DNA of 64,000 nt from a bacterium (GTDB taxonomy: Bacteria; Patescibacteriota; Minisyncoccia; Phycocordibacterales; UBA12088): NCBI GenBank assembly GCA_003252295.1, contig QKEV01000007.1:9632-73631 (forward strand). Reading direction: 5' to 3'. Position 1 is the stretch's first letter. The number at the start of each line of letters is the position of its first letter. The notes below the pieces were generated by a model, which worked only from the letters and a program-made list of their open reading frames with translations, searched no databases and was not told where the DNA came from. Both the position numbers and the translations under genes were made by a program. This document shows positions 2,555 to 39,929 of the stretch, one piece after another.

Positions 2555-3587
2555 CTTCTTCTAGCAGTATATCATTGTAATCTTCAAGCTTCTCAACGAT
2601 AAATCCTGTGCCACGAACCACAGAGGTGAGAGGGTCATTTGCTACGTTGACAGGTAGTTCAAGCATTGAACTCAAGAGTTCTGGTATGCCATAAATGAGT
2701 GCACCGCCTCCAGTAAGGTTAATACCAACTTTCATGATATCAGCAACAACAGTTGGTGGACTACTCTCCAACACCTCTTTAATTCCTTCAATGATTGCAT
2801 CGATACTCACTGCAACAGCATCGCGAATATCTTCATCGGTGATAACCACTTCTTTTGGAAGACCGGTAACAAGGTCGCGACCACGAACTGGTTCTTCAAG
2901 AAGTTCATCTTGTTCCAAGAGTGCACATACAGCAAACTTCAGATCTTCGGCTGTGGTCTCGCCAATGACTATTTTAAACTCATTTCTGAGATGAGCTACT
3001 ATATCGCTATTAAGCTTATCTCCTGCTGTATGAATATTCTTTGAGGTGACAATACCATTCAAGGAAAGGATGGCGATATCAGTAGTGCCGCCACCTATGT
3101 CGACCACCATACTCGCTCGTGCCTCGTGAATAGGAAGTCGCATACCTATTGCTGCAGCAATAGCTTCTTCTACAATGTGTACTTCACGTGCTCCTGCGTT
3201 ACGTGCAGCATCTCGAACGGCGCGTGACTCAACGTTGGTGATTCCTGATGGCACACCGATAACAACACGTGGTCCAACAAGTGCACGAGTACCACGTTGT
3301 GCCTTGTTGAGGAAGTACCCAATCATTTCTTCGGTCACCTCAAAGTCTGAAATAACCCCGTTTACGAGTGGGCGCACTGCACGAATATGTTGTGGTGTTC
3401 TGCCGAGCATCTCTTTTGCCTTTGCACCAACAGCAACAACCTGACCTGTCTTCTGGTTGAGTGCAACAACAGAAGGTTCATTGATGATGATCCCCTTTCC
3501 GCGAAGGTACACCAAACTATTGGTGGTACCAAGGTCGATACCAATGTCGTTAGAAAAAGGTGCGAGTACTTTTGTAAGTAATGACAT
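2526..3587 (-). CDS. mreB: Rod shape-determining actin homologue MreB
   Basis: IGIDLGTTNS phosphate-1 motif and VVDIGGGTTD; the 353 aa align with MreB over the full length. Confidence 0.95.
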   Translation of the reverse strand: MSLLTKVLAPFSNDIGIDLGTTNSLVYLRGKGIIINEPSVVALNQKTGQVVAVGAKAKEMLGRTPQHIRAVRPLVNGVISDFEVTEEMIGYFLNKAQRGTRALVGPRVVIGVPSGITNVESRAVRDAARNAGAREVHIVEEAIAAAIGMRLPIHEARASMVVDIGGGTTDIAILSLNGIVTSKNIHTAGDKLNSDIVAHLRNEFKIVIGETTAEDLKFAVCALLEQDELLEEPVRGRDLVTGLPKEVVITDEDIRDAVAVSIDAIIEGIKEVLESSPPTVVADIMKVGINLTGGGALIYGIPELLSSMLELPVNVANDPLTSVVRGTGFIVEKLEDYNDILLEEDALPTFENS

Positions 3588-20648: not shown

Positions 20649-20723
20649 AGCTTATTTTTATTATTAAAATAATTAACTTTAGTATAACAAAAACCCCAGT
20701 TTGCATCCTGAGGTTTTTGTTGC

Positions 20724-20924
20724 TTAGTAGTTCACCTTTACATTTCCATTATCATCAACATCTACCGTGGTACCTCCAGCATCAACATGGGTTCCATTGT
20801 TACCTGTGGTAACTGAAGTATTGCCTGTTTTTACACTCGTACTATTGCTACCGCTTCCAAAAGCAAAATATCCCACAGCTGCTATACCTAGAACAACGAT
20901 AACAATTAAAACAACTTTATTCAT
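20724..20924 (-). CDS. Small secreted/anchored protein, truncated paralogue of the 21012..22076 gene
   Basis: Its C-terminus ...THVDAGGTTVDVDDNGNVKVNY matches ...VHVDAGGTTVDIDDSGAVNVNY of the neighbouring gene, and the 3' flank including the terminator is also duplicated. Confidence 0.5.
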   Translation of the reverse strand: MNKVVLIVIVVLGIAAVGYFAFGSGSNSTSVKTGNTSVTTGNNGTHVDAGGTTVDVDDNGNVKVNY

Positions 20925-20967
20925 AAGGGTAATGATTAGTTACAATAATTACTTTCAGTATATCAAA

Positions 20968-20999
20968 AAACCTCAGTATAAACCGAGGTTTTTTGTGCA
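20968..20999 (-). terminator. Intrinsic terminator for the 21012..22076 gene (AAAACCTC / GAGGTTTT stem plus a U-run)
   Basis: Read directly. A near-identical hairpin (20690..20722) follows the 66-aa paralogue. Confidence 0.5.
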
Positions 21000-21011
21000 A
21001 CTGTGTATTGC

Positions 21012-22076
21012 TTAGTAGTTTACATTTACAGCACCAGAATCATCGATGTCTACTGTAGTTCCTCCTGCATCAACATGTACACCATCATCACCAGCAGTTA
21101 CTGAGGTATCGCCAGTTTTTACGCTAACACCATCATCAGCTATCATGACGTTTGTGTATACATCATCAATTGCCTGTGTCGTTACATTGAGTATGCCAGC
21201 TGTTTTTATCACTGTAGCTTGTTCAGTGGTAACAGAACTATCAGTAATGCTGTAGCTTGCACCTTTTACCTGTGAAGTAATAGTTTTCTTTAATTGAGCG
21301 AGACCAGGTTTTGATGCAAGGAAGCTGTACCAAGGTAGCTTAACTGCAACATCATCTCCATTAACCTCTACTTCTGCGTCAAAGTTCATGTTGAAAAGAC
21401 CAAAGAGTTTTGCAGGCTGTGAGTAGGTCATTGATACACTATTGCCCTTAACTGAAATGTCATCAATAGTGTCATATTCGTCATCAAGCATGTTTACATA
21501 GATATCAAGATCGGCATCGTCTTGGATGTACTCAACTACCGTGTCGCCATCAAAAGAAAGAAGTGCATTTCTTGTTTGAACATCAACACCCCCCTCTGAA
21601 GCCATTACACGCAAAGTTTCCCCGTTTGCAGCGGTAGTACGTATCTGTGTTCCAGAACCAGATGATTGTACCTGTGTTCCGTAAGCATTTACCTCAGTAC
21701 CGTTGTTACCGGTTTTTACTGAAGCACCTGGTGTAGAAACATCAACACCATCATCGTCAACAGAAACATCTACATCACCTGCTGATACCTGTGTCTTGTT
21801 GCCAGTGGTGTTAACTTTTGTACCTCCTGCATTCACATTGACACCATCATCGTCAACATCAACATCAACTCCTGGAAGGTCAACATCAACATCGTCACCG
21901 TCAATATCAACATCAAAACCTGTACCACTTACATCAACTGAATCTCCATCTAGATCAATATCGAGATCACCAAAACTTCCCATCATTTGTGCATGTGCAA
22001 CAAATGTCCATGAAGAAAAAATTAGTGCAGTAATGCCAAGTAGCACGACATTAAAACGTATTGTATTGCTTATCAT
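21012..22076 (-). CDS. Secreted acidic repeat protein (VDVD/DxDxD-rich, possibly cation-binding)
   Basis: Signal peptide (…FVAHAQ) followed by many (V/I)DVD repeats, over 354 aa. Confidence 0.6.
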   Translation of the reverse strand: MISNTIRFNVVLLGITALIFSSWTFVAHAQMMGSFGDLDIDLDGDSVDVSGTGFDVDIDGDDVDVDLPGVDVDVDDDGVNVNAGGTKVNTTGNKTQVSAGDVDVSVDDDGVDVSTPGASVKTGNNGTEVNAYGTQVQSSGSGTQIRTTAANGETLRVMASEGGVDVQTRNALLSFDGDTVVEYIQDDADLDIYVNMLDDEYDTIDDISVKGNSVSMTYSQPAKLFGLFNMNFDAEVEVNGDDVAVKLPWYSFLASKPGLAQLKKTITSQVKGASYSITDSSVTTEQATVIKTAGILNVTTQAIDDVYTNVMIADDGVSVKTGDTSVTAGDDGVHVDAGGTTVDIDDSGAVNVNY

Positions 22077-22846: not shown

Positions 22847-24157
22847 TTACTGTAAGGTTTTGAAAGTGTTCTTGTTGTTCGTGTACTGCTTTAGAATCGC
22901 CTGTTCGAGTCCATTGTAGCGTTGTGTATACATAGCATCAGCGTAGGTGACACATTCTGTTCCAACGAGTTCACTTGCATGAATATCGAGCATCATAGCA
23001 GCTTGCTCACGCTTCAACCCCATCATGCATTGATTGTAGGTGTTTGTAACGTAACCAATGTCATACACTTCTTCGATCACCCTGCCGATGGTAAAGTCAG
23101 CCTCATCAAGCATTTGGTTGTACTGGTTAAATGCCTCTTGTAGATCAAGAGCGTTCTTTACTGAGTAGTAGTCACCACCTCCAGCATTTGCAATGCTCTG
23201 TAGCTGTGCTTCATCTTCACCTGCTACATCAAATCCTATAACACTCGTCGTAATACTTGGGTCACCTGCCTTTAATGACTGCACAACACTTACTGGACTA
23301 CCACCACAGGTTTCTTCCCCATCACTCACAAGGAGTATGATATTGTTCTCTGCTTGCTTCGCAAGAAGAATGTTTTTTGCCTTGAGGAGAGAGTCTGCAA
23401 TAGGTGTCCATCCTGTTGCACTAAAGCTGTCTATCTGCTGCTTTGCCTGTGTTGCATTTACAGTGCCAAGAGGAATAACCTCTTCAATACCTACACAGGA
23501 TGTTGCCTTCTCAGCTTCAGTGTTGCCGCCCTTGTGACCATACACAACAAAACTCAAGTTGATACCACCTTCACCAGCTATAGTATCAACAAAATCTTTT
23601 GCTGCTTCTTTAGCAATATCTATCTTTGCTTTACCGTCCACCTGACCTGCCATTGATCCTGAAGCATCAAACACAAGCACAAGGTTGGTTTTTGCAACAG
23701 TATCTTCTGCGGCATACTGACCACTTCGTATTGCTGTATCTTCACATTTTGAGAAGTCAAATGCATTTGCTTCAAGAAGCTGGTTGTATGTAGCCTCACA
23801 ACCTGCTGGTGCGTCTATTGCAACAGTGTTTCCACTTGTTTGCTTTGTACCTGTAGTGGTTGTGCTGTACGAATAATCATCCATATCATCATTACCTGCA
23901 AGGAATGCAAATGCGATGCCTCCTAGAACAAGCAGTACAATAAGTACAAGTAGAATCTTTACAAAAGAATGTTTTTTCTTTGGTTCTTCTTGTTGTGGTT
24001 GTGGTATTTGTTGTGGAGGAATTTCTTGTGGTGCAGGTTGCGTATACTGTGGCTGCGCCATCGGTGTAGGGCTTACCGGTTGTTGACCGTATCCCTGGTT
24101 TCCTTCTGGTGTGTATTCATTCATATGTTCAATCAAAAGTACTGTTAAAAGTCCCAA
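22847..24157 (-). CDS. Membrane-anchored von Willebrand factor A (VWA) domain protein with a Pro/Gln-rich N-terminal tail
   Basis: MIDAS motifs DASGSM…T…SDGEET, one TM after a PQ-rich low-complexity region, and a TTG start that overlaps the upstream gene's stop. Confidence 0.8.
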   Translation of the reverse strand: MGLLTVLLIEHMNEYTPEGNQGYGQQPVSPTPMAQPQYTQPAPQEIPPQQIPQPQQEEPKKKHSFVKILLVLIVLLVLGGIAFAFLAGNDDMDDYSYSTTTTGTKQTSGNTVAIDAPAGCEATYNQLLEANAFDFSKCEDTAIRSGQYAAEDTVAKTNLVLVFDASGSMAGQVDGKAKIDIAKEAAKDFVDTIAGEGGINLSFVVYGHKGGNTEAEKATSCVGIEEVIPLGTVNATQAKQQIDSFSATGWTPIADSLLKAKNILLAKQAENNIILLVSDGEETCGGSPVSVVQSLKAGDPSITTSVIGFDVAGEDEAQLQSIANAGGGDYYSVKNALDLQEAFNQYNQMLDEADFTIGRVIEEVYDIGYVTNTYNQCMMGLKREQAAMMLDIHASELVGTECVTYADAMYTQRYNGLEQAILKQYTNNKNTFKTLQ

Positions 24158-24825
24158 TCACTAGGTTCGTCCTCACCGCTGTCCCATGAGTCACCTTCTG
24201 CTCCACTATAATTGACACCTTGTCCATAGTTTGAACTTTCCCAGTGTTCACCGTTTACACCGTCAAATACGATACCTTGTCCAAAGTTAGTGCTTTCCCA
24301 TTTGCTACCCTCACTGTTTACATACGAAACCGCTTGTCCATCATTTGAACTTTCCCAGCGCTCATTGCCACTGCCAGTAAACTCTAATGCTTGACCCTCA
24401 TTTGCAACGTACCAGGTGTTTCCATTTGTGTAGTTCCAATCTGCATCAATGTCACTTTTACTGACATTAGACATGGTGCCGTCATTTGCTGTGTAGTTGT
24501 AATTAAACATGTCATCAGACCAGCAACCACTACCATCACAGTATTCACGATTCTCATAAACCTCGCCAAAATACTCCTGCATCAATGACTCTCTGTTTGC
24601 ATTCCAGCTATCTACTAATGTGCTCCACGAAAGAATTTCATCGTTCCACTTTAGGTTTTCATCTTGTGCTTTTGAACCATCCCAACTGGCTGCGTATGCA
24701 AGCAATGCAGTTGAGGAAAAAGCAAAAATTACGCCTGTAAATAAAGCGTTTCTTGTAAATGTATTCATGTATTTAAAATACCATGTGACAGCGTCACTGG
24801 TCACATATGCAATCCACACACTCAT
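24145..24825 (-). CDS. Secreted Trp-rich repeat protein (five G..WESSN.GQ repeats), co-transcribed with the VWA gene
   Basis: Signal peptide and tandem ~15-aa W/N/G repeats; the stop overlaps the VWA start. Confidence 0.5.
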   Translation of the reverse strand: MSVWIAYVTSDAVTWYFKYMNTFTRNALFTGVIFAFSSTALLAYAASWDGSKAQDENLKWNDEILSWSTLVDSWNANRESLMQEYFGEVYENREYCDGSGCWSDDMFNYNYTANDGTMSNVSKSDIDADWNYTNGNTWYVANEGQALEFTGSGNERWESSNDGQAVSYVNSEGSKWESTNFGQGIVFDGVNGEHWESSNYGQGVNYSGAEGDSWDSGEDEPSDWDF

Positions 24826-32746: not shown

Positions 32747-33610
32747 ATGCAGCGCATTCTTTTGAGAATGTTAGTACCACTCACCGTTGTCGGGCTTTGC
32801 GTCTTTACGGTGCGTCACTTTTCTCACACAGATACACAAACATATACTGATGTTGTGTCCAATGGTGACGACGCATCTTTGGTCTCTACCTATTCTTCAA
32901 CGACACCTGACACCTTGTTTGTTGCAGGTGCTACTGTGCATGTACCCATTGCTGTGTACCACAGCATACGCAACACTTCACCTGATGAGACACTGGAGGT
33001 TCGAAGGTTCACTATTCCACCTGCTGTCTTTGATGAGCAAATGCACTACCTGTATGAAAACAATTTCCACCCCATCACGTTTGCTATGCTTTACGAAGCA
33101 CTCACCTACGGTACACCGTTACCATTGAAACCAGTGATACTATCTTTTGATGATGGATGGGCTACTCAGTACATAGAAGCACTACCGGTGCTTCAAAAGT
33201 ATGATTTTACCGCAACATTTTTTCTATACCCAAATGTTATTGAACATGAAAACTATATGACGTGGGATGAGGTGCGCGTGCTGCATGAGGCAGGCATGGA
33301 AATAGGGTCACACTCAAAGTCACATCAGTACATGACAAGACAAGACGCTGAAGAACAGATGTTTGAAGTAACGCAGAGTAAAAAAATTCTTGAGGAAAAG
33401 TTAGATAGTAAAGTCGAAACCTTTGCATACCCTTATGGTTTGTTTAATGCTGATATGCAAGACATGCTAAAAGATGCCGGGTACACCACTGCGCGTGGGC
33501 TAGACACCGGTGTCACACACAGCCAAGAGAGTTTGTACGAACTTCCGAGCTACCTCATTCGTAACGATTTTAACGATTTTAAATACTTTGTGAACCAAAC
33601 AGAAAAGTGA
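32747..33610 (+). CDS. Polysaccharide deacetylase (NodB homology domain), TM-anchored
   Basis: LSFDDGW (the TFDDG motif), HSKSH His motif and an N-terminal TM. Confidence 0.85.
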   Translation: MQRILLRMLVPLTVVGLCVFTVRHFSHTDTQTYTDVVSNGDDASLVSTYSSTTPDTLFVAGATVHVPIAVYHSIRNTSPDETLEVRRFTIPPAVFDEQMHYLYENNFHPITFAMLYEALTYGTPLPLKPVILSFDDGWATQYIEALPVLQKYDFTATFFLYPNVIEHENYMTWDEVRVLHEAGMEIGSHSKSHQYMTRQDAEEQMFEVTQSKKILEEKLDSKVETFAYPYGLFNADMQDMLKDAGYTTARGLDTGVTHSQESLYELPSYLIRNDFNDFKYFVNQTEK

Positions 33611-33640
33611 TGAGATGGTGTGTACAGTACTTTTAAATCA

Positions 33641-33672
33641 AAAAAGCTCTTTGGTGTTCACCAAAGAGGCTT
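33641..33672. terminator. Hairpin terminator between the deacetylase (+) and a small - strand ORF (T6 run on the - strand side)
   Basis: CTCTTTGGTG / CACCAAAGAG stem read directly. Confidence 0.45.
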
Positions 33673-33694
33673 AATGAAATTCTGTAAAAGTTGG

Positions 33695-33871
33695 TTATTG
33701 TTTTTTATCCAGGCTCATTGCCTGTTCAACTGCATCAGTCACCTTTTTTACAGACGTGTTTAAAAATGTAACGAAATTTGCCATTAACACTAACACAAAT
33801 ACAACGGTCAAAACGGCCGAACTGCATTTAACAATGAGTTCTGATTGTCCTGCATTTGAAAATCTTGACAT
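33695..33871 (-). CDS. Candidate 58-aa membrane microprotein
   Basis: ATG 5 nt after a GGGGGT Shine-Dalgarno motif, one TM helix (VLTVVFVLVLMANFVTFL) and a terminator hairpin just downstream. It is below the ORF-track cutoff. Confidence 0.35.
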   Translation of the reverse strand: MSRFSNAGQSELIVKCSSAVLTVVFVLVLMANFVTFLNTSVKKVTDAVEQAMSLDKKQ

Positions 33872-33994
33872 GTTACCCCCATTTTTTTGTTTTTGTCTTT
33901 AACCACAGTTCTTTACAAGGTACTAAATTAAAAATCTGAGTATGATTATACTCATTAAGTACCGGTATCGAAAAATGCGTATGGTGCATAACTT

Positions 33995-34174
33995 CTACTT
34001 CTTCCAATCTTCTATCACGAGTTTTTTGCCATGTTTTTTGACCACCACTTTCTGTTTCTCGCGCCAGCCAAGCTCGCGTATAAACTCAATAGGTAGTGAG
34101 ACAACAATTGTGCGACCACTACCCACCTTACTTAGTTTACGCACATTTCGTTCATCTAATGATCTTCGTGCCAT
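33995..34174 (-). CDS. Candidate 59-aa AbrB/MazE/SpoVT-type (swapped-hairpin) DNA-binding protein
   Basis: Hand translation gives MARRSLDERNVRKLSKVGSGRTIVVSLPIEFIRELGWREKQKVVVKKHGKKLVIEDWKK, which is the AbrB/MazE pattern (…GGS..VTLPKEW.ELG…). It is below the track cutoff. Confidence 0.4.
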   Translation of the reverse strand: MARRSLDERNVRKLSKVGSGRTIVVSLPIEFIRELGWREKQKVVVKKHGKKLVIEDWKK

Positions 34175-34191
34175 ATAAATTTATTCTAGCA

Positions 34192-34229
34192 CTGCTCATG
34201 AATTAACTCTAGAATTAATTCATGAGCAG
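34192..34229. repeat. 15-bp perfect inverted repeat CTGCTCATGAATTAA-N8-TTAATTCATGAGCAG
   Basis: Read directly. It lies 18 bp upstream of the AbrB-like start and just outside the AT-rich islet boundary. Confidence 0.8.
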
Positions 34230-34383
34230 GTTTGTAAAGAAAAGGTGACTGACCCCTTTTCTTGAAATTATTACAATTTTCTTCATAAATACAGTATATC
34301 AACACTTTATATAAATTGCGTTACAAAAACATTTATCAACCCCATTAGACATAATTATAATCAGATAATATTATTTTCTTTAT

Positions 34384-34971
34384 ATGGGAATAATGTCCTT
34401 AAAGTTACCTATAGTAATTATTGGTCCAATGTGCGTAGGAAAGACTACTGTATCTAAGCTTGTCTCAAGAAAACTTTCTATACCATACTGCTCTCTTGAT
34501 TCAGTGCGCTGGTACTATTATCTAAAAAGTGGTATGGATATCCTGGAAGATGATATTAACAAAGAAAAAAGCTTTGAGGAGTTACTGAGGTCAAGAAGTG
34601 AATATGATACCACTGTTGTTGAAAGAGTATTTTCTGACTTTAAGAACTATGTATTAGATTTTGGTATATCACATGCTTTCCAAGAAAACGCACACAACAA
34701 AGATAAACTATCTGCAATAGTTCAGAAAAATAGAAATTCATTTCTACTTATCCCAAGTACTGATGTTGAAGTGAGTGCTAGTATTCTGAATGAAAGGTTA
34801 AAAGAATTTAGAAATAGTCCAGATATAGAGGATATAATGCAGTTTAATATCAAAACCATAGAAACTTTTTTAGAAACTTATACTAACTCCAAAGTGCTAT
34901 TTACAAAAGACAAGACTCCTAAGCAAGTGTCGCAAGAATTAATTGATTCACTATTTTATAAAGGAACTTAA
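34384..34971 (+). CDS. P-loop kinase, shikimate-kinase-like fold (substrate unknown)
   Basis: Walker A GPMCVGKTT followed by ...SLDSV, matching the GxMGxGKTT…DxD pattern of shikimate- or gluconate-kinase-like NMP-kinase-fold enzymes. Confidence 0.55.
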   Translation: MGIMSLKLPIVIIGPMCVGKTTVSKLVSRKLSIPYCSLDSVRWYYYLKSGMDILEDDINKEKSFEELLRSRSEYDTTVVERVFSDFKNYVLDFGISHAFQENAHNKDKLSAIVQKNRNSFLLIPSTDVEVSASILNERLKEFRNSPDIEDIMQFNIKTIETFLETYTNSKVLFTKDKTPKQVSQELIDSLFYKGT

Positions 34972-35089
34972 AGATCCGAATTATTGGGGACAGGCACAAT
35001 ATTTTATTGTTTTTTATGGTGTAATAATCCTCATCTCCTTTCATCTATTCTACGCCTAAATTACTAAACTACAACACGTTCGTCGTCGG

Positions 35090-35326
35090 TTGTTGTACAC
35101 AGTAATGACTATAGAAGAAAATTGCTTAGAAGAAAGTTTGAGGTTATACGAGATAGACAATGTCTGGTATGCAGTTGGAGTTATGTGTGCTGCTAAAGGA
35201 GGTAAATTGTTACCGCATAATCAAGAACGTAAAATTAATCAGGAACACTTCAGGGTATTAGAAGAAGAGGTTCCTTTTGAATCAGTCTACAATGTGCGTG
35301 TAGAAGACTTTTTTTATGAAAAGTAA
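35090..35326 (+). CDS. Hypothetical 78-aa protein
   Basis: ORF with moderate complexity; it contains R-x5-H (RKINQEH), but that is too little to call HEPN. Confidence 0.3.
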   Translation: MLYTVMTIEENCLEESLRLYEIDNVWYAVGVMCAAKGGKLLPHNQERKINQEHFRVLEEEVPFESVYNVRVEDFFYEK

Positions 35327-35392
35327 AAAATAAAAGGGTCAGGAGGATTTATTTTTAAATAAACAGGAACAGGTACTATTTCTCTATCAGAA

Positions 35393-35827
35393 CTACTTAC
35401 CTTTAACCACCTCTTTAAGCATAAGCAACTTCTTTCTATCTTTTTCCCTATTCATCTTTTTATACGTCTCATACTCTGACTGCAGAGACATGCATGGTAT
35501 AGGCACATCATACTTGTTCACAGTGACTACATGCTTCATAAAATCATGAGGACGTAAACCCTTAGGTTCATCTGAAGCAAAGTTAATCTCAACATCATCA
35601 ACACAGAACACTAGCTCAAGGTACCCGTGTTTATTTATTATCGGAGTATTGAATATTTCTGCTACAGCAAGTATCCCCTCCTTATCAGTAAGAAAATCGA
35701 CATCAGAAGGTTCAGTGTGTATTCCCTGAAACTTAAGGTTAAGCGTACCTATAAGAACATAGTTAATATGTTGTAACTTTTCTGTAATAGTTTTAAATAT
35801 CTTTGCTAAGACAACATCATCCATCAT
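35393..35827 (-). CDS. Small nucleotidyltransferase (MNT / ANT(2'')-Lnu-like minimal NTase fold)
   Basis: VLIGTLNLKFQGIHTEPSDVDFL fits the NTase signature hG[GS]x9-13Dh[DE]h; 144 aa. Confidence 0.5.
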   Translation of the reverse strand: MMDDVVLAKIFKTITEKLQHINYVLIGTLNLKFQGIHTEPSDVDFLTDKEGILAVAEIFNTPIINKHGYLELVFCVDDVEINFASDEPKGLRPHDFMKHVVTVNKYDVPIPCMSLQSEYETYKKMNREKDRKKLLMLKEVVKGK

Positions 35828-35882
35828 ATATACATATTAATACAGCAAGCCATACTCACACTAAGAAGTAAACAAAAATCGA

Positions 35883-36118
35883 ACCCCGATTGCCGCCGTG
35901 AAAACCCGAAGACGTGCCCAAGCACGTCTATCGGACCTTGCAGAGAGAGTTTCTGATGCTTACCCCGCCCCACGGCGGGGTGAATGAAGAAACTATCCTG
36001 CAAGGAGGACAGTCTATAAGACAGTCAAATGACATCGCCTTTACAAGGGCAATCGGATCATACTCCTTGGAGTCTCACAACTAAAAACCACCTCAAGTGC
36101 AACAAGAGGTGGTTTTTA
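35883..36118 (+). ncRNA. Unclassified structured RNA candidate with an intrinsic terminator
   Basis: A GC-rich (~55%) segment in an AT-rich, coding-free region. It has a long-range closing helix CCGAUUGCC (35886) / GGCAAUCGG (36048). Within it lie nested hairpins GACGUGC-CCAA-GCACGUC and CCUUGCAG…AGUUUCU…CCCCGCC-CCAC-GGCGGGG…AGAAACU…CUGCAAGG. It ends in a perfect terminator AAAACCACCUC-N11-GAGGUGGUUUUUAG (36084..36118). Confidence 0.3.
36084..36118. terminator. Intrinsic terminator (11-bp perfect stem AAAACCACCTC / GAGGTGGTTTT, T-runs on both sides)
   Basis: Read directly. Confidence 0.65.
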
Positions 36119-36126
36119 GTTGTGAT

Positions 36127-36185
36127 GTGACCCAATAGCGTGGCTTTCAGAACTGTATGAGAATAAAGTTAATATCAGTAACTCT
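36127..36185 (+). repeat. Repeat B copy 1 (GTGACCCAATAGCGTGGCTTTCAGAACTGTATGAG…), about 85% identical to 37001..37060
   Basis: Aligned by eye; it begins with the GTGACCC core shared with the tRNA-Glu 3' end. Confidence 0.6.
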
Positions 36186-36206
36186 ATTAAAGATTTAGAA
36201 AATATT

Positions 36207-36235
36207 TTAACCCCAACTTAGTTGTTGGGGTTAAG
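36207..36235 (-). terminator. Terminator of the NT5C gene (TTAACCCCAAC / GTTGGGGTTAA perfect stem)
   Basis: Read directly, 20 nt downstream of the stop on the - strand. Confidence 0.5.
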
Positions 36236-36254
36236 CACTTCTGCTTGAGTGTTA

Positions 36255-36833
36255 TTATAGTACTTGAATGATTTCATCCCACGAAGAGACTCTTCTGATA
36301 TTTTTCAAAACGTTGGAATGTTTATTCCAAGGGCAATCAAACAACAATACCTGTATCGCATTTTCTGCACAATCTACTGCATGTTTAGTGTGATCTTCAA
36401 CCATTACGGTAATTCCAAGTTCCTTACATATTTTAGATTTTTTTTCACTTTTTCCATTTAAGCTGTATGAATTAGTAAAATAAATATCTAAAAATAAACC
36501 TGGAAAATGTTTTTCAATCCACTCTTTTGTTTGTTCAATCATATTGTCTCTTCTCCCAGTAATTGCAAACAGCTCAACACCACCTTCTTTCAACTTGTTC
36601 AGAGAAGTGACCGACTTAATCACAGGTAGAATTTTATTACAATGACTTTGGTCTTCAAAAAACATATCAACCTTACGAACCGCTTCTTCTTTTGAACCAC
36701 CCCAAACTTTCCAAAAATCATAGGAAGTGAAATCATTTTTTGATAGATTTCCTCCAAATGTTTCATTATGAAAGCGCGCAAGTGTTGGAACAAAATCTGC
36801 GATCACATCATCTATATCAATACCGATTTTCAT
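36255..36833 (-). CDS. 5'(3')-deoxyribonucleotidase (HAD superfamily, NT5C/YorS-like)
   Basis: N-terminal DIDDVIAD HAD motif I and a GGGAG Shine-Dalgarno motif; full-length similarity to NT5C-type nucleotidases. Confidence 0.7.
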   Translation of the reverse strand: MKIGIDIDDVIADFVPTLARFHNETFGGNLSKNDFTSYDFWKVWGGSKEEAVRKVDMFFEDQSHCNKILPVIKSVTSLNKLKEGGVELFAITGRRDNMIEQTKEWIEKHFPGLFLDIYFTNSYSLNGKSEKKSKICKELGITVMVEDHTKHAVDCAENAIQVLLFDCPWNKHSNVLKNIRRVSSWDEIIQVL

Positions 36834-36940
36834 ATTTATTCTCCCTTTTAAATATGATTAACATGCAGGATGTATTTTCTAAGGTATTTCTAACATTTGT
36901 ATAAAATAAAGCAAACTGAAAATCAGAAGTTCCTGATTAG

Positions 36941-37007
36941 ACATGAAAGTTCTGAACACCCTATGTGGTGCTCTAAAATACATTGAAAAATATAGCTTTA
37001 AAATCTG
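36941..37007 (+). repeat. Repeat A copy 1 (66 nt), an exact duplicate of 38411..38476
   Basis: AGTTCTGAACACCCTATGTGGTGCTCTAAAATACATTGAAAAATATAGCTTTAAAATCTGTGACC occurs twice. Confidence 0.85.
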
Positions 37008-37060
37008 TGACCCATTAGCGTGGCTTTCAGAGTTGTATGAGGTAAAAGTGTAATCAGTCA
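37001..37060 (+). repeat. Repeat B copy 2
   Basis: GTGACCCATTAGCGTGGCTTTCAGAGTTGTATGAG…. Confidence 0.6.
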
Positions 37061-37144
37061 ACTTTTGGTTTTAGTTGTTACATAGCACATTTCTACAACC
37101 ATCTACGCAGAAACACTTGTACACTCGACCTGTATAGGTCTTTT

Positions 37145-37579
37145 GTGTATTCTGAATGTATGACATGTAAAGAAAAAGCAACAACGTATGTACAGTCGCA
37201 AAAGTCTTTACATTTATATCCTCGTGTGCAAGATGCTTTTGAAGAAGTGTTATGTTCATTGTCTGAAGCAGAACTTGATTGGGTTTGTGGCAATTTAGAA
37301 TTGATGGTTTTACACGAACAAGCAGTTGCACAAGTGATGCATTTTGATCCAAAAAAAGCCGCTTTTGCGGTGATGCAATTCACATTTTATGACGACATGC
37401 CTGGCGAGGTGTTGCGATGGGTAATAGCACATGAACTGGGGCATGCTATGCAAAAAAGAAATTGGAGAGAGGGTGATGGAACAGGTTTGGAAGAGGATGC
37501 AGATATTTGTGCTGAACAGTGGGGTTATCTGAAGACAAAAGAGATTGAAGAGTATCTACGTAAGAGGAGAGAAAATTAA
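37145..37579 (+). CDS. Putative HExxH zinc metallopeptidase (ImmA/IrrE- or SprT-like minimal domain)
   Basis: VIAHELGHAM motif in a 144-aa protein. Confidence 0.45.
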   Translation: MYSECMTCKEKATTYVQSQKSLHLYPRVQDAFEEVLCSLSEAELDWVCGNLELMVLHEQAVAQVMHFDPKKAAFAVMQFTFYDDMPGEVLRWVIAHELGHAMQKRNWREGDGTGLEEDADICAEQWGYLKTKEIEEYLRKRREN

Positions 37580-37811
37580 GACTGTTTTATAGAAAAACTT
37601 CATCTCAACTATGCCTGTTATCTGGATATTTGTTAGAGATTAAAGGGTTCAGGTAGTTTTATCTGACACAATTCTAGAGTTAAAAAACACATAATAAATC
37701 ACGTGTTTTTTGTTTTACTTGCTTAAATGGATGTGTTTAGAACACATGATTAGTACTATTGATAATTTGATTCCAAACAACATGAATATCTTTCTGTTTA
37801 CTCCATATATT

Positions 37812-38396
37812 CTATATTTTTTTTCTTAAAATTTGATGCTGAGGATAACCTTCGTCCGTTAATCCATAAGGCATAAGATCTGCACATTCCACGTTGAGTA
37901 GTACGGTCAAAGCTTCCTTTATTGTGTTGTATTTTTCTTTACCAAGCTTCTCTTCTTCGGTGACTCCAAAACGATACCAAGTGTAAAAGTGCCACAGTTC
38001 ATGCATTATATTTTTTCGAACAGTTTCCCTTGGGACAGTTACATACAAAAAATTATTTTCAATACTGTAAGGGTTTCTGTTGTTTACGGTTAAATAGGCT
38101 GTTATGTCTTGAGGCAACGTAACACCAAAAATTGCTTCTGCTCTTTTGTAATACTCGTTTGCTATTTGTAACCACTCTGTCAAATATTTTTCAATATATG
38201 TTTTGATGTTTACATTATGTCCCAGTAAATATTCATCAATGAAATTTGAAACAGTTTCCTCAGTCTGATTTTCACCATATTTTGTGATCAGCAGTTCATA
38301 AACCTTTGTTGGATTTGGGTTGTTGTTTGAGCTCTTACCTTTGTTGAGTAAACACCAAATATCTCTTTCTTTGTTGTATTCAAAAATAAGTTTCAT
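37812..38396 (-). CDS. Hypothetical protein with an HExxH motif (NIMHELWHFY)
   Basis: 194 aa. Repeat A copy 2 lies 15 bp upstream of its start. Confidence 0.4.
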   Translation of the reverse strand: MKLIFEYNKERDIWCLLNKGKSSNNNPNPTKVYELLITKYGENQTEETVSNFIDEYLLGHNVNIKTYIEKYLTEWLQIANEYYKRAEAIFGVTLPQDITAYLTVNNRNPYSIENNFLYVTVPRETVRKNIMHELWHFYTWYRFGVTEEEKLGKEKYNTIKEALTVLLNVECADLMPYGLTDEGYPQHQILRKKI

Positions 38397-38410
38397 AACA
38401 AAAGTATATC

Positions 38411-38476
38411 AGTTCTGAACACCCTATGTGGTGCTCTAAAATACATTGAAAAATATAGCTTTAAAATCTGTGACCC
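38411..38476 (+). repeat. Repeat A copy 2 (66 nt, exact), fused to a tRNA-Glu 3'-end-like sequence
   Basis: See copy 1. Here the repeat continues into CCACGGAGA…. Confidence 0.85.
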
Positions 38477-38650
38477 CACGGAGACGCTTCGCTATCGAAC
38501 TCGCTCCCTATGGTCGCTCTCATAAAACCCACGGTTTTATGATATTCCTCCACGGGAAACCAGCAGGTTTCCCGACCCCTTCCGCTGTTCGATTCTCCGA
38601 CAAAATCTAAGCAACAAAAAATACCCTAGTAAAAAACTAGAGTATTTTTT
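38470..38650 (-). pseudogene. Scrambled tRNA-Glu-derived fragments (degenerate att-site/tRNA remnant), not a functional tRNA
   Basis: A 17-nt direct repeat CTGTGACCCCACGGAGA matches the tRNA-Glu 3' end. Next to it are a T-arm-like segment carrying a 9-nt insertion and an oppositely oriented TTCGATTCTCCG fragment. No acceptor-stem pairing is possible. Confidence 0.4.
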
Positions 38651-38657
38651 GTCGCTG

Positions 38658-38729
38658 TGACCCCACGGAGAATCGAACTCCGATTACCAGGATGAAAACC
38701 TGGCGTCCTAGCCGTTAGACGATGGGGCC
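38658..38729 (-). tRNA. tRNA-Glu (anticodon UUC)
   Basis: GGCCCCATCGTCTAACGGCTAGGACGCCAGGTTTTCATCCTGGTAATCGGAGTTCGATTCTCCGTGGGGTCA folds as a canonical 72-nt cloverleaf: a 7-bp acceptor (one G-U pair), a 4-bp D-stem, a 5-bp anticodon stem, the anticodon loop UUUUCAU, T-loop TTCGATT and discriminator A. CCA is not encoded. Confidence 0.85.
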
Positions 38730-38805
38730 ATTTGTTGTTGCATGATTCTACAATATTTTCAGTAATTTTCAAAGTATTTTGCTGTTTACGTAAAAAATAT
38801 ATATA

Positions 38806-39439: not shown

Positions 39440-39655
39440 ATGCCTAATTTTGACAAAACAGGTCCAACCGGCAATGGCCCAACAGGGTTTGGTCGTGGTG
39501 GATGTAACTGTAGAGACGGTAACACTACTCCCTGCCCACAAGGACGTGGGTTTGGAGTAGCAGCTCAAGATATGACTCTTGATGAAGAGGAGAAGATGCT
39601 TGAGGAACGTCTTATTGCCATTCGTAAGGTAAAAACTGAGCAAAAGGAAGCGTAG
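39440..39655 (+). CDS. DUF5320-like small protein (Gly/Pro-rich N-terminus, C-terminal coiled coil)
   Basis: MPNFDKTGPTGNGPTGFGRGGC… resembles the MPRGDGTGP.G.GP.TGRG motif of DUF5320 as I remember it. Confidence 0.45.
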   Translation: MPNFDKTGPTGNGPTGFGRGGCNCRDGNTTPCPQGRGFGVAAQDMTLDEEEKMLEERLIAIRKVKTEQKEA

Positions 39656-39656
39656 T

Positions 39657-39929
39657 ATGCCTAGACCTCGTTTACGACGACACATGTGTGGTACACCAGC
39701 GGTAAAGTTTTACAAGCCTGCCGGTGTCCCACTTCGTGGTATGCAGGTTGAGGAGCTCACCCATGAGGAATGGGAAGCACTTCGTCTTCGCTACATAGAG
39801 AAGCTCGACCAGACCACATCAGCTGAGCGTATGGAAACCTCTCAGAGTACATTGCAACGCATACTTGCAAGTGCTCATGAAAAAGTATGTACAGCTATTG
39901 TGACAGGTAAGGCGGTTCGCGTGGAGTAG
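39657..39929 (+). CDS. DUF134/UPF0251 family putative DNA-binding protein
   Basis: MPRPRLRRHMCGTPAVKFYKPAGVP…LTHEEWEALRL… matches the DUF134 consensus (MPRP…FKP.G.P…LT.EE.EA.RL). Confidence 0.55.
   Translation: MPRPRLRRHMCGTPAVKFYKPAGVPLRGMQVEELTHEEWEALRLRYIEKLDQTTSAERMETSQSTLQRILASAHEKVCTAIVTGKAVRVE

Follow-up and report, generated by a model that had tools for sequence, protein, structure and literature searches.

The locus considered here is a low-GC (guanine plus cytosine) region within a stretch of 64,000 nucleotides (the window) from a bacterium of the Patescibacteriota, in which three small genes stand side by side, encoding a P-loop kinase with the fold of shikimate kinases, a minimal nucleotidyltransferase (NTase) and an NT5C-family 5'(3')-(deoxy)ribonucleotidase. 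The original prediction had placed all three on one horizontally acquired islet and regarded them as a functional set, either an antibiotic-modifying resistance determinant or a phage or anti-phage module that manipulates deoxynucleoside monophosphate (dNMP) pools. The three open reading frames (ORFs) were confirmed, each with its expected motif (Table 1). The kinase and NTase genes are convergent on opposite strands, and between the NTase and NT5C genes lie about 230 nt of structured non-coding sequence, a bidirectional terminator hairpin and a junction that resembles an attachment (att) site (junction C, at 36126). In addition, NT5C has a private terminator at 36207-36234.

The GC content in 1-kb bins is 0.33-0.37 between 34 and 39 kb, compared with about 0.42 in the rest of the window. 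At a resolution of 500 nt, the minima coincide with the kinase (0.30-0.33), NT5C (0.32-0.34) and the second of two genes for HExxH proteins (0.32), while the NTase and the adjoining structured element have a GC content of 0.40 and the backbone ranges from 0.41 to 0.46. The right edge of the low-GC stretch is formed by the sole tRNA gene of the window, tRNA-Glu(UUC). The remainder of the window is ordinary chromosome, with genes for MreB/MreC, ProRS, an M50 peptidase, DnaB, GlmS, RmuC and a P-type ATPase, and also for DnaG, RpoD, a UvrD/PD-(D/E)XK helicase-nuclease, UppP and DsbA-like proteins.

Table 1. Genes, junctions and segments of the low-GC region and its edges (positions in the window)
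Feature	Position	Strand	Details
AbrB/MazE-type small DNA-binding protein	33995-34174	-	59 aa; PF04014 4e-6, above cutoff
Perfect palindrome, 19+19 bp (38 bp)	34192-34229		inverted repeat, 95-100% complementary, zero spacer; between the AbrB-like gene and the kinase
Kinase, shikimate-kinase-fold P-loop	34384-34971	+	195 aa; Walker A IGPMCVGKTT
Small ORF 3' of the kinase	35090-35326	+	73-78 aa; called as a gene on Logan contig L001
NTase, TM1012-family minimal nucleotidyltransferase	35393-35827	-	144 aa; IGTLNLKFQG...PSDVDF
Structured non-coding element	35845-36072		GC-rich; folding z = -6.4 (- strand) and -9.6 (+ strand)
Perfect 20-bp hairpin, bidirectional intrinsic terminator	36075-36125		inverted repeat 100% complementary, and folds; abuts junction C
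Junction C	36126-36169		core TGTGACCC and Rb copy 1; distal end of the NT5C cassette
Cassette S3	36126-37005		880 bp; NT5C sole gene
NT5C-family HAD 5'(3')-(deoxy)ribonucleotidase	36255-36833	-	192 aa; starts MKIGIDIDDV
Junction A	36948-37049		Ra, core, Rb copy 2; attP-like, between the tandem cassettes
Cassette S2	37006-38467		1462 bp; two HExxH genes
Small HExxH putative metalloprotease (AHELGH)	37145-37579	+	in S2; weak matches to M60, Lit and MXAN_6640-type HExxH
Small HExxH / SprT-like putative metalloprotease (MHELWH)	37812-38396	-	in S2; weak SprT-like match
Junction B	38411-38500		Ra copy 2, core, partial tRNA-Glu 3' end
Segment S1	38485-38654		170 bp; includes the tRNA's own terminator
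tRNA-Glu(UUC), array anchor	38657-38729	-	promoter-like site 38745-38772; terminator 38610-38656

The organization of the region is defined by partial copies of the tRNA gene. The 17 nucleotides at the 3' end of tRNA-Glu (CTGTGACCCCACGGAGA) are found exactly at 38655, in the gene, and again at 38468, with a chance expectation of 0.08. An 8-nt core of this sequence, TGTGACCC, is present on the + strand, which is the orientation of the tRNA copies, at 36126, 37006, 38469 and 38656; one further copy in the window, at 33305 on the opposite strand inside a polysaccharide deacetylase gene, was taken as chance. Two repeats adjoin the core. Ra is an exact 66-nt repeat (36948-37013 and 38411-38476) with the core at its end, and Rb is a 44-nt repeat of 86% identity (36126-36169 and 37006-37049) with the core at its start. 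Read in the tRNA orientation, Rb is a degenerate copy of tRNA-Glu from the T-loop to the 3' end, and junction B (38468-38500) contains a better copy, which runs from the T-loop to the acceptor with a 9-nt insertion. The tRNA-Glu 3' end is represented four times in the same orientation, and the segments S2 and S3 next to the full tRNA gene are delimited by these partial copies. On the + strand the order is terminator hairpin, junction C, S3, junction A, S2, junction B, S1 and tRNA-Glu. The interiors of S2, where the two HExxH genes are convergent, and of S3 are unrelated, and their end structure is identical, as each runs from Rb on the left to Ra on the right.

Successive site-specific integrations at a tRNA-derived attachment site would leave such a footprint, and we infer that S2 and S3 arose as cassettes in this manner. 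The recombinase would act in trans, which is proposed because none is encoded in the islet. NT5C would have arrived as a cassette with its own upstream region and terminator, and the terminator hairpin abutting junction C probably flanked the attachment site originally. Segment S1, which folds moderately well (z = -3.0), contains two tight hairpins and, on the + strand, a T-arm-like fragment in the opposite orientation (GTTCGATTCTCCG). When the junctions were folded as single-stranded DNA, no hairpin signal was obtained (z from +0.8 to -0.7); since z is about 0, they are not integron attC sites, and integron-like sites were ruled out.

To the left of 36126 the array appears to end. Smith-Waterman comparison with the junction sequences over 33000-36125 gave no degenerate junction (z<2), therefore the kinase and NTase lie outside the repeat-bounded cassettes, and a third, older cassette holding both genes was ruled out. 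A 20-nt repeat at 34282 and 38392 was judged a chance AT-rich match. In the Logan assembly of an independent run the contigs break at the repeats, so that the NT5C cassette stands alone on a contig of 945 bp (L007), and the stretch from the deacetylase to the NTase forms a contig of 2965 bp (L001).

The same arrangement was found independently in Candidatus Kaiserbacteria. In one genome (L008, GCA_020428685.1), tRNA-Glu(CUC) is followed, 210 bp downstream, by the gene for an NT5C of 55% identity, which keeps the same relative orientation. The 3' end of this tRNA is repeated at 2219, 3657 and 3871, a further copy of 28 nt is found at 3566, and the copies define an NT5C cassette of 908 bp. Partial tRNA copies number four in this locus and four in each of two others, L009 and L010, and an alignment of nine tRNA copies yields the common form GTTCY-RAAW...GG.TCAC. 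In L010, from a sister strain, a partial tRNA copy takes the place of the tRNA in front of this NT5C cassette, and a different segment is located further upstream. This extra segment (L010 1-4020, Logan SRR17893159) encodes a DUF2726 protein and an AAA_15/AAA_21 ATPase, a defence-like pair, from which it follows that the tRNA-Glu array takes up putative defence cargo too. The difference between L010 and L008 is as expected for an array in which each new insertion displaces the earlier ones from the tRNA, and it is only this strain comparison that would demonstrate mobility.

Whether the three genes travel together was addressed with tblastn searches using 61 kinase-family, 4 NTase and 26 NT5C queries over 8 kb at 94 loci, while five later NT5C loci (L117-L121) were judged from Pfam gene-family lists, giving a total of 99 loci. 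For the kinase family, 232 loci were confirmed when GTDB species genomes were scanned with a pattern, and all neighbourhood analyses of this family cover the best 80 of them. An NTase or NT5C gene was found within 8 kb of the kinase-family gene in none of these 80 loci, a kinase or NTase partner in none of the 14 NT5C loci (nine by tblastn and five by Pfam lists), and a kinase or NT5C partner in none of the five NTase loci. Functional libraries were equally unrewarding, with no matches to resistance, defence or phage families at curated thresholds. PADLOC returned nothing significant for the three proteins (the best was VakA at 5.7e-4 for the kinase, with no match for the NTase or NT5C), and IMG/VR contains no relatives of the kinase or the NTase. 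A viral origin was ruled out, as neither of these two proteins nor the Ra repeat gave any match in IMG/VR.

Because the genes sit in separate local units, do not co-occur and find no support in functional libraries, they are not regarded as one module. Instead, we consider, with a probability of roughly two in three, that they represent three independent single-gene accessory functions, and not one pathway, which are neighbours by chance in a variable stretch on the downstream side of tRNA-Glu(UUC). The proposal of a single acquired islet is thereby replaced by a composite, in which the NTase would be an old resident of the lineage outside the cassettes and the kinase would be a separate acquisition. 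Horizontal acquisition itself holds for part of the segment, given the low GC content, the adjoining tRNA, the direct repeats of partial tRNA and the Kaiserbacteria cassette with its 55% identical NT5C, but it does not extend to the NTase, which looks resident. Likewise, the homologues of the three genes have unrelated neighbourhoods, an outcome that the original prediction itself had named as refuting it.

Several observations weigh against the composite interpretation. No recombinase was detected in the islet ORFs or in the approximately 30 largest ORFs of the window that were scanned (on a 154-kb contig), and none is listed in L008-L010. Ra is located just upstream of both minus-strand cassette genes, and it might have arisen by duplication of a promoter or another regulatory sequence and not be an att arm at all. 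The genome of the window offers no empty-site, excised-circle or strain-polymorphism evidence, and the searched collections hold no close relative: a scan of GTDB genomes with the kinase pattern for syntenic relatives found nothing, and a search of JGI metagenomes anchored on UppP reached 47% identity at best, the source contig itself being absent from them. Furthermore, the co-occurrence test of the kinase is based on members of about 30% identity, with the two closest ones (42% and 37%, on ENA/Logan contigs) outside it, the context of the NTase comes from one other lineage only, and all enzymatic activities are deduced from fold and motifs.

Some of these points agree with a quite different explanation, according to which nothing at the locus is mobile, all three genes serve housekeeping or salvage and descend vertically, and the repeats arose when a promoter and the tRNA-terminator region were duplicated locally. 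The position of Ra and the lack of an integrase in the ORFs scanned would fit such duplications, and vertical inheritance would fit the core-like divergence and context of the NTase as well as the chromosomal, syntenic location of NT5C in Wolfebacteria-type genomes. However, this explanation does not account for the GC content of the kinase and NT5C (0.30-0.34 against 0.41-0.46 in the backbone), nor for a kinase that lacks any relative above 42% identity among 1.84 billion representatives and whose 80 listed genome loci are all outside the candidate phyla radiation (CPR). It is also difficult to reconcile with two cassettes that carry unrelated cargo and have both ends and a tRNA-derived core in common, with the same architecture and a strain-level cassette gain in Kaiserbacteria, and with the NikA-like gene that accompanies the closest NT5C relative. 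Overall, an entirely immobile locus seems improbable.

The composite interpretation can be followed through the individual proteins, beginning with NT5C, the only one of the three that lies within a cassette. NT5C matches Pfam PF06941 over residues 3-191 (1.2e-14, 55 bits against a cutoff of 24.8), and it displays motif I of the HAD superfamily, DxDxV, as D6-I-D8-D-V, which places it in the NT5C family; no solved structure is detectable for it by sequence. These two features, the full-length Pfam match and the motif, are shared with the cytosolic and mitochondrial 5'(3')-deoxyribonucleotidases of the family, whereas the relatives of the window protein, unlike those reference enzymes, make up a CPR-centred subfamily (44-69% identity). 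There are 25 relatives with 30-69% identity, and the named ones derive from Candidatus Kaiserbacteria, Wolfebacteria and other CPR genomes. The closest (69%) resides on a 4.3-kb contig together with a NikA-like mobilisation protein. In three Wolfebacteria-type lineages (L011-L014 and L120), NT5C is stably chromosomal between two HhH-GPD genes, in the arrangement DUF3850, HhH-GPD glycosylase, NT5C and HhH-GPD glycosylase, near RuvC and YebC. Other relatives adjoin SNase and Exo_endo_phos nucleases, or NUDIX and pyruvate kinase genes, and one of 44% identity (L121, 7573-8262) is located at the end of a glycosyltransferase cluster, 15 bp before tRNA-Ser(UGA), where partial-tRNA repeats are absent. 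Since these relatives adjoin repair, nuclease and nucleotide genes, a repair- or salvage-linked role of the subfamily is suggested, and the window protein most likely dephosphorylates (deoxy)nucleoside monophosphates for nucleoside salvage.

In a dNMP-pool-manipulating module of phage or anti-phage origin, the nucleotidase would work with a nucleotide kinase and the NTase. NT5C resembles phrog_420 (4e-30) and, weakly, a PHROG of phage 5'-3' deoxyribonucleotidases, MenT toxins are among the fold neighbours of the NTase, and the defence-like DUF2726 and ATPase cassette of the Kaiserbacteria array could be seen as a parallel. Nevertheless, the only phage match of NT5C has 26% identity, the negative PADLOC and IMG/VR results apply here, and neither phage structural or replication genes nor an antitoxin partner of the NTase are present. 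In addition, three lineages have NT5C relatives at a stable chromosomal position flanked by DNA glycosylase genes, and the families do not co-occur, which makes a module of this kind most improbable. A toxin-antitoxin reading, with the AbrB/MazE-type protein paired with the kinase or with the NTase as a MenT-like toxin, was likewise rejected, as the genes are divergent or partnerless and no AbrB homologue is located near the kinase-family gene in any of the 80 loci.

The kinase belongs to a different and much wider family. A word-indexed search retrieved only the protein itself, while phmmer against 1.84 billion representatives revealed 447 relatives at E<=1e-3, the best of which has 42% identity. 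Most relatives are about 190 aa long, and a subgroup of about 370 aa consists of two tandem copies of the domain. The motifs GPxxxGK[ST], LD..RW.YY, DFGAGH, LLLPS.D and YT..KTP and an Arg near position 138 are conserved across the family. The best 80 loci are found in Cyanobacteria, Anaerolineae/Chloroflexota, Bacillota (Priestia, Paenibacillus, Geomicrobium), Spirochaetia and others, with none in CPR genomes. No neighbour is conserved, as clustering of 676 neighbour proteins gave a top cluster that is present in 9 of the 80 loci, and aro genes are neither a conserved neighbour in these loci nor present in the window ORFs scanned (the islet and the approximately 30 largest).

In Pfam, the kinase matches AAA_18 above the cutoff (1.3e-7) and SKI below it (2e-3, 18.7 bits against a threshold of 22.1). 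The shikimate-kinase equivalogs of NCBIfam give at best 26 bits, with cutoffs of 180-215 bits, and the other family members likewise remain far under curated thresholds for shikimate kinase. In profile searches, it is chiefly the P-loop region at the N-terminus that aligns with solved structures and Pfam models. An AlphaFold2 (AF2) model built from 61 family members has a pLDDT of 93.8, and its closest PDB folds are shikimate kinases (TMq 0.58-0.66, 14-21% identity), followed closely by Fap7 and by adenylate, CMP and gluconate kinases; some family members also match a Desulfovibrio-type homoserine kinase model weakly. The likeness to AroK/AroL and to gluconate kinase, adenylate kinase, Fap7 and homoserine kinase consists of the P-loop fold of the nucleoside monophosphate kinase type. 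The Walker A motif, D39 (an Asp after strand 2) and a glycine-rich DFGxxH loop, which may be compared with the GGG of shikimate kinase, are conserved in the kinase family. Ser replaces the first Asp of the DxD motif, and the mapping of the shikimate-binding Arg residues is of low confidence. The protein differs from shikimate kinase in its low sequence identity, its own family motifs (RW.YY, LLLPS.D, YT..KTP) and its stand-alone gene outside any aro context. The label of a shikimate-kinase-like P-loop protein is therefore correct at the level of the fold, and the protein is not AroK. As judged from its fold, its substrate is probably a nucleotide or the hydroxyl group of a small molecule. The very low GC content and the lack of close relatives suggest that the gene is a separate acquisition. 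Family members from cultured organisms, such as Rhodocytophaga rosea WP_162445955.1 and those of Priestia megaterium plasmids, are automatically annotated as 'shikimate kinase'.

The family occurs on four of 72,556 plasmids, where it is annotated as 'shikimate kinase' or 'AAA family ATPase'. On the plasmids of Priestia and Synechocystis, the gene is surrounded by GNAT, GrpB, MBL, DinB, TetR/MarR/MerR, SDR, P450 and efflux genes, which hints at a xenobiotic-modifying role. Such a role remains a lead only, because none of the 80 genome loci repeats the neighbours seen on the Priestia plasmid (GrpB, GNAT, MBL, DinB).

The true family of the NTase is that of the TM1012-like minimal nucleotidyltransferases, as both sequence and fold indicate. 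A sequence search of the PDB identifies TM1012 of Thermotoga maritima (2EWR/4HX0) with E=2e-9 over residues 6-131, and the AF2 model (pLDDT 89.8) superposes on it with a TMq of 0.78-0.81. The two proteins are alike in size and in the minimal GS/DxD core (PDB 2EWR/2FCL/4HX0), at 21-23% identity. TM1012 was the closest template for modelling the NTase domains of fukutin and FKRP (Kuchta et al. 2009, PMC2794190), and it is described only as a putative NTase with no assigned function; the TM1012-type family as a whole is still without one. Two relatives of the window NTase are known, with 47-49% identity, and G27-T28, D42/D44 and E80 are invariant among them, hence the catalytic set of the Pol-beta type is intact.

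One of these relatives provides a context. In the L002 organism, which is represented in five metagenome samples, a 48% identical NTase is encoded between HtpX and DnaG-RpoD. The genes for NTase, DnaG, RpoD, an HTH protein, thioredoxin and ArsP, which are contiguous there, are all found within 23 kb in the window, and the identity of RpoD (54%), DnaG (44%) and ArsP (48%) between the two organisms is similar to that of the NTase. The near-backbone GC content, the core-like divergence and the DnaG-adjacent context in L002 suggest that the NTase is probably a resident gene, for which vertical descent with rearrangement is favoured over recent import.

These assignments also bear on the possibility that the kinase and NTase, with or without NT5C, act as an antibiotic-modifying determinant through O-phosphotransfer and O-nucleotidyltransfer. 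Small-molecule hydroxyls, in shikimate, gluconate and homoserine, are phosphorylated by kinases of the same fold, two plasmids carry kinase-family genes in the company of GNATs, GrpB, MBL, DinB, TetR/MarR/MerR regulators and efflux genes, and the fold comparison of the NTase puts ANT(2'')-Ia (TMq 0.61-0.65) in a second tier behind TM1012, together with the MenT1 toxin (about 0.70), a tRNA nucleotidyltransferase. These two enzymes have the same small fold as the window protein (TMq 0.61-0.71) at 10-13% identity, which falls to 10-11% for ANT(2'')-Ia, but the NTase, unlike them, has neither an antitoxin partner nor a resistance-gene context and is of a family with no known role. Its match to the Pfam family of ANT(2'') (PF10706) involves the C-terminal part only and stays below the cutoff (17.3 against 21 bits), NCBIfam, from whose curated models the protein names of NCBI are drawn, contains nothing for it at E<=0.1 and no APH- or CPT-type match for the kinase, and the 72,556 plasmids yield one weak, archaeal match. 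Moreover, the two genes are convergent, are not co-transcribed and never co-occur, and the plasmid neighbours of the kinase family are not recurrent, therefore a resistance determinant is very unlikely.

In summary, the fold and superfamily labels that were first given to the three proteins are upheld by Pfam, by PDB sequence and fold comparison and by AF2, structure prediction having led to shikimate kinases for the kinase and to TM1012 for the NTase. The view that no substrate can be assigned from sequence also stands, whereas the two collective functions proposed for the genes have not withstood the comparison with resistance, defence and phage collections.

Apart from the protein genes, the composite region includes a structured element directly upstream of the start of the NTase. 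Without the terminator, its folding is strongly favoured on both strands (z = -6.4 on the - strand and -9.6 on the + strand), the predicted structure is multi-branched, and a fragment resembling tRNA-Glu is embedded in it at about 35877-35937 on the - strand (z = 4.1). Rfam offers no family at the gathering threshold or at E<=1, and blastn of the structured region against all fetched loci found only Logan contigs of the same sample. If CPR genomes do possess a distinct cassette system, as is suggested more speculatively below, this element and its tRNA-Glu-like fragment might belong to it.

At the left edge of the low-GC stretch, the AbrB-like gene is divergent from the kinase gene, and both are on Logan contig L001. 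The palindrome between them is a possible operator, and the AbrB-like protein may be a local regulator. Next to this gene follows an ORF for a hydrophobic protein of 58 aa (33695-33871). The small ORF on the 3' side of the kinase has no family match in Pfam, NCBIfam, PADLOC or PHROG. Directly to the right of the low-GC stretch, at 39440-39929, a DUF5320-like gene (71 aa) is paired with a DUF134 gene (90 aa, with a helix-turn-helix similar to sigma-70 region 4). Elsewhere in the window, a direct repeat of 118 nt (75% identity, spacing 288) occurs at 20720-21125 near an ORF of 354 aa, and three 32-nt repeats, 57 nt apart, are found at 24219-24364 within an ORF of 226 aa (24145-24825), neither ORF having a Pfam hit.

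With regard to annotation, the co-location of kinase, NTase and nucleotidase genes is a useful negative, since the three do not make up a module for resistance or defence and ought not to receive such a joint annotation. The kinase represents a sizeable uncharacterised branch of the shikimate-kinase fold, with 447 cluster representatives, to which the name 'shikimate kinase' is routinely given in error. The cassette arrays at tRNA-Glu point to a way in which ultra-small CPR genomes, with few recognisable mobile elements, might exchange single accessory genes. A bolder and still doubtful extension is that CPR/Patescibacteria possess a distinct class of miniature cargo cassettes, each of 0.9-1.5 kb and one or two genes, which lack an integrase and have their own regulatory signals and ends of the Ra/Rb type. 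A recombinase supplied in trans would insert them into arrays at the 3' end of tRNA-Glu and remove them again, and NT5C would be a recurrent cargo across lineages that are about 45% diverged. If true, this would amount to functionally integron-like gene capture built on a tRNA attachment site. The mechanism class has already been described in other streamlined bacteria, and no long-standing question is settled by the present locus.

Among known systems, the closest counterpart is provided by the islands of Prochlorococcus and their tycheposons, where integration at one tRNA is repeated, partial tRNA copies remain between the elements and degenerate remnants are found (Hackl et al., bioRxiv 10.1101/2020.12.28.424599). 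The window has in common with them successive insertions at one tRNA, partial copies in the same orientation, degenerate remnants and cargo that lacks mobility genes, and the comparison of L010 with L008 agrees with the displacement of older arrivals from the tRNA by newer ones. Tandem accretion of integrative and conjugative elements and cis-mobilizable elements (ICE/CIME) is a further example of accretion at tRNA sites. In contrast to tycheposons, the units of the window are tiny, with one or two genes on 0.9-1.5 kb, lack genes for an integrase, for replication and for excision, and belong to a CPR-like host; no integrase-bearing element is visible and no recombinase was found in the ORFs scanned, and the active attachment site would lie 187 bp downstream of the functional tRNA gene, in a partial copy of it. 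Integron cassettes, for their part, resemble the window in forming arrays of short, mostly single-gene, recombinase-less cassettes with site-like shared ends and unrelated cargo. They differ in that the core of the window is derived from a tRNA and is not GTTRRRY, attC-like hairpins, intI and attI are lacking, and the window cassettes carry their own terminator and upstream region. By analogy, the footprint matches published island growth at tRNA genes, and it would thus fall within an already known mechanism class, of which it would be at most a variant.

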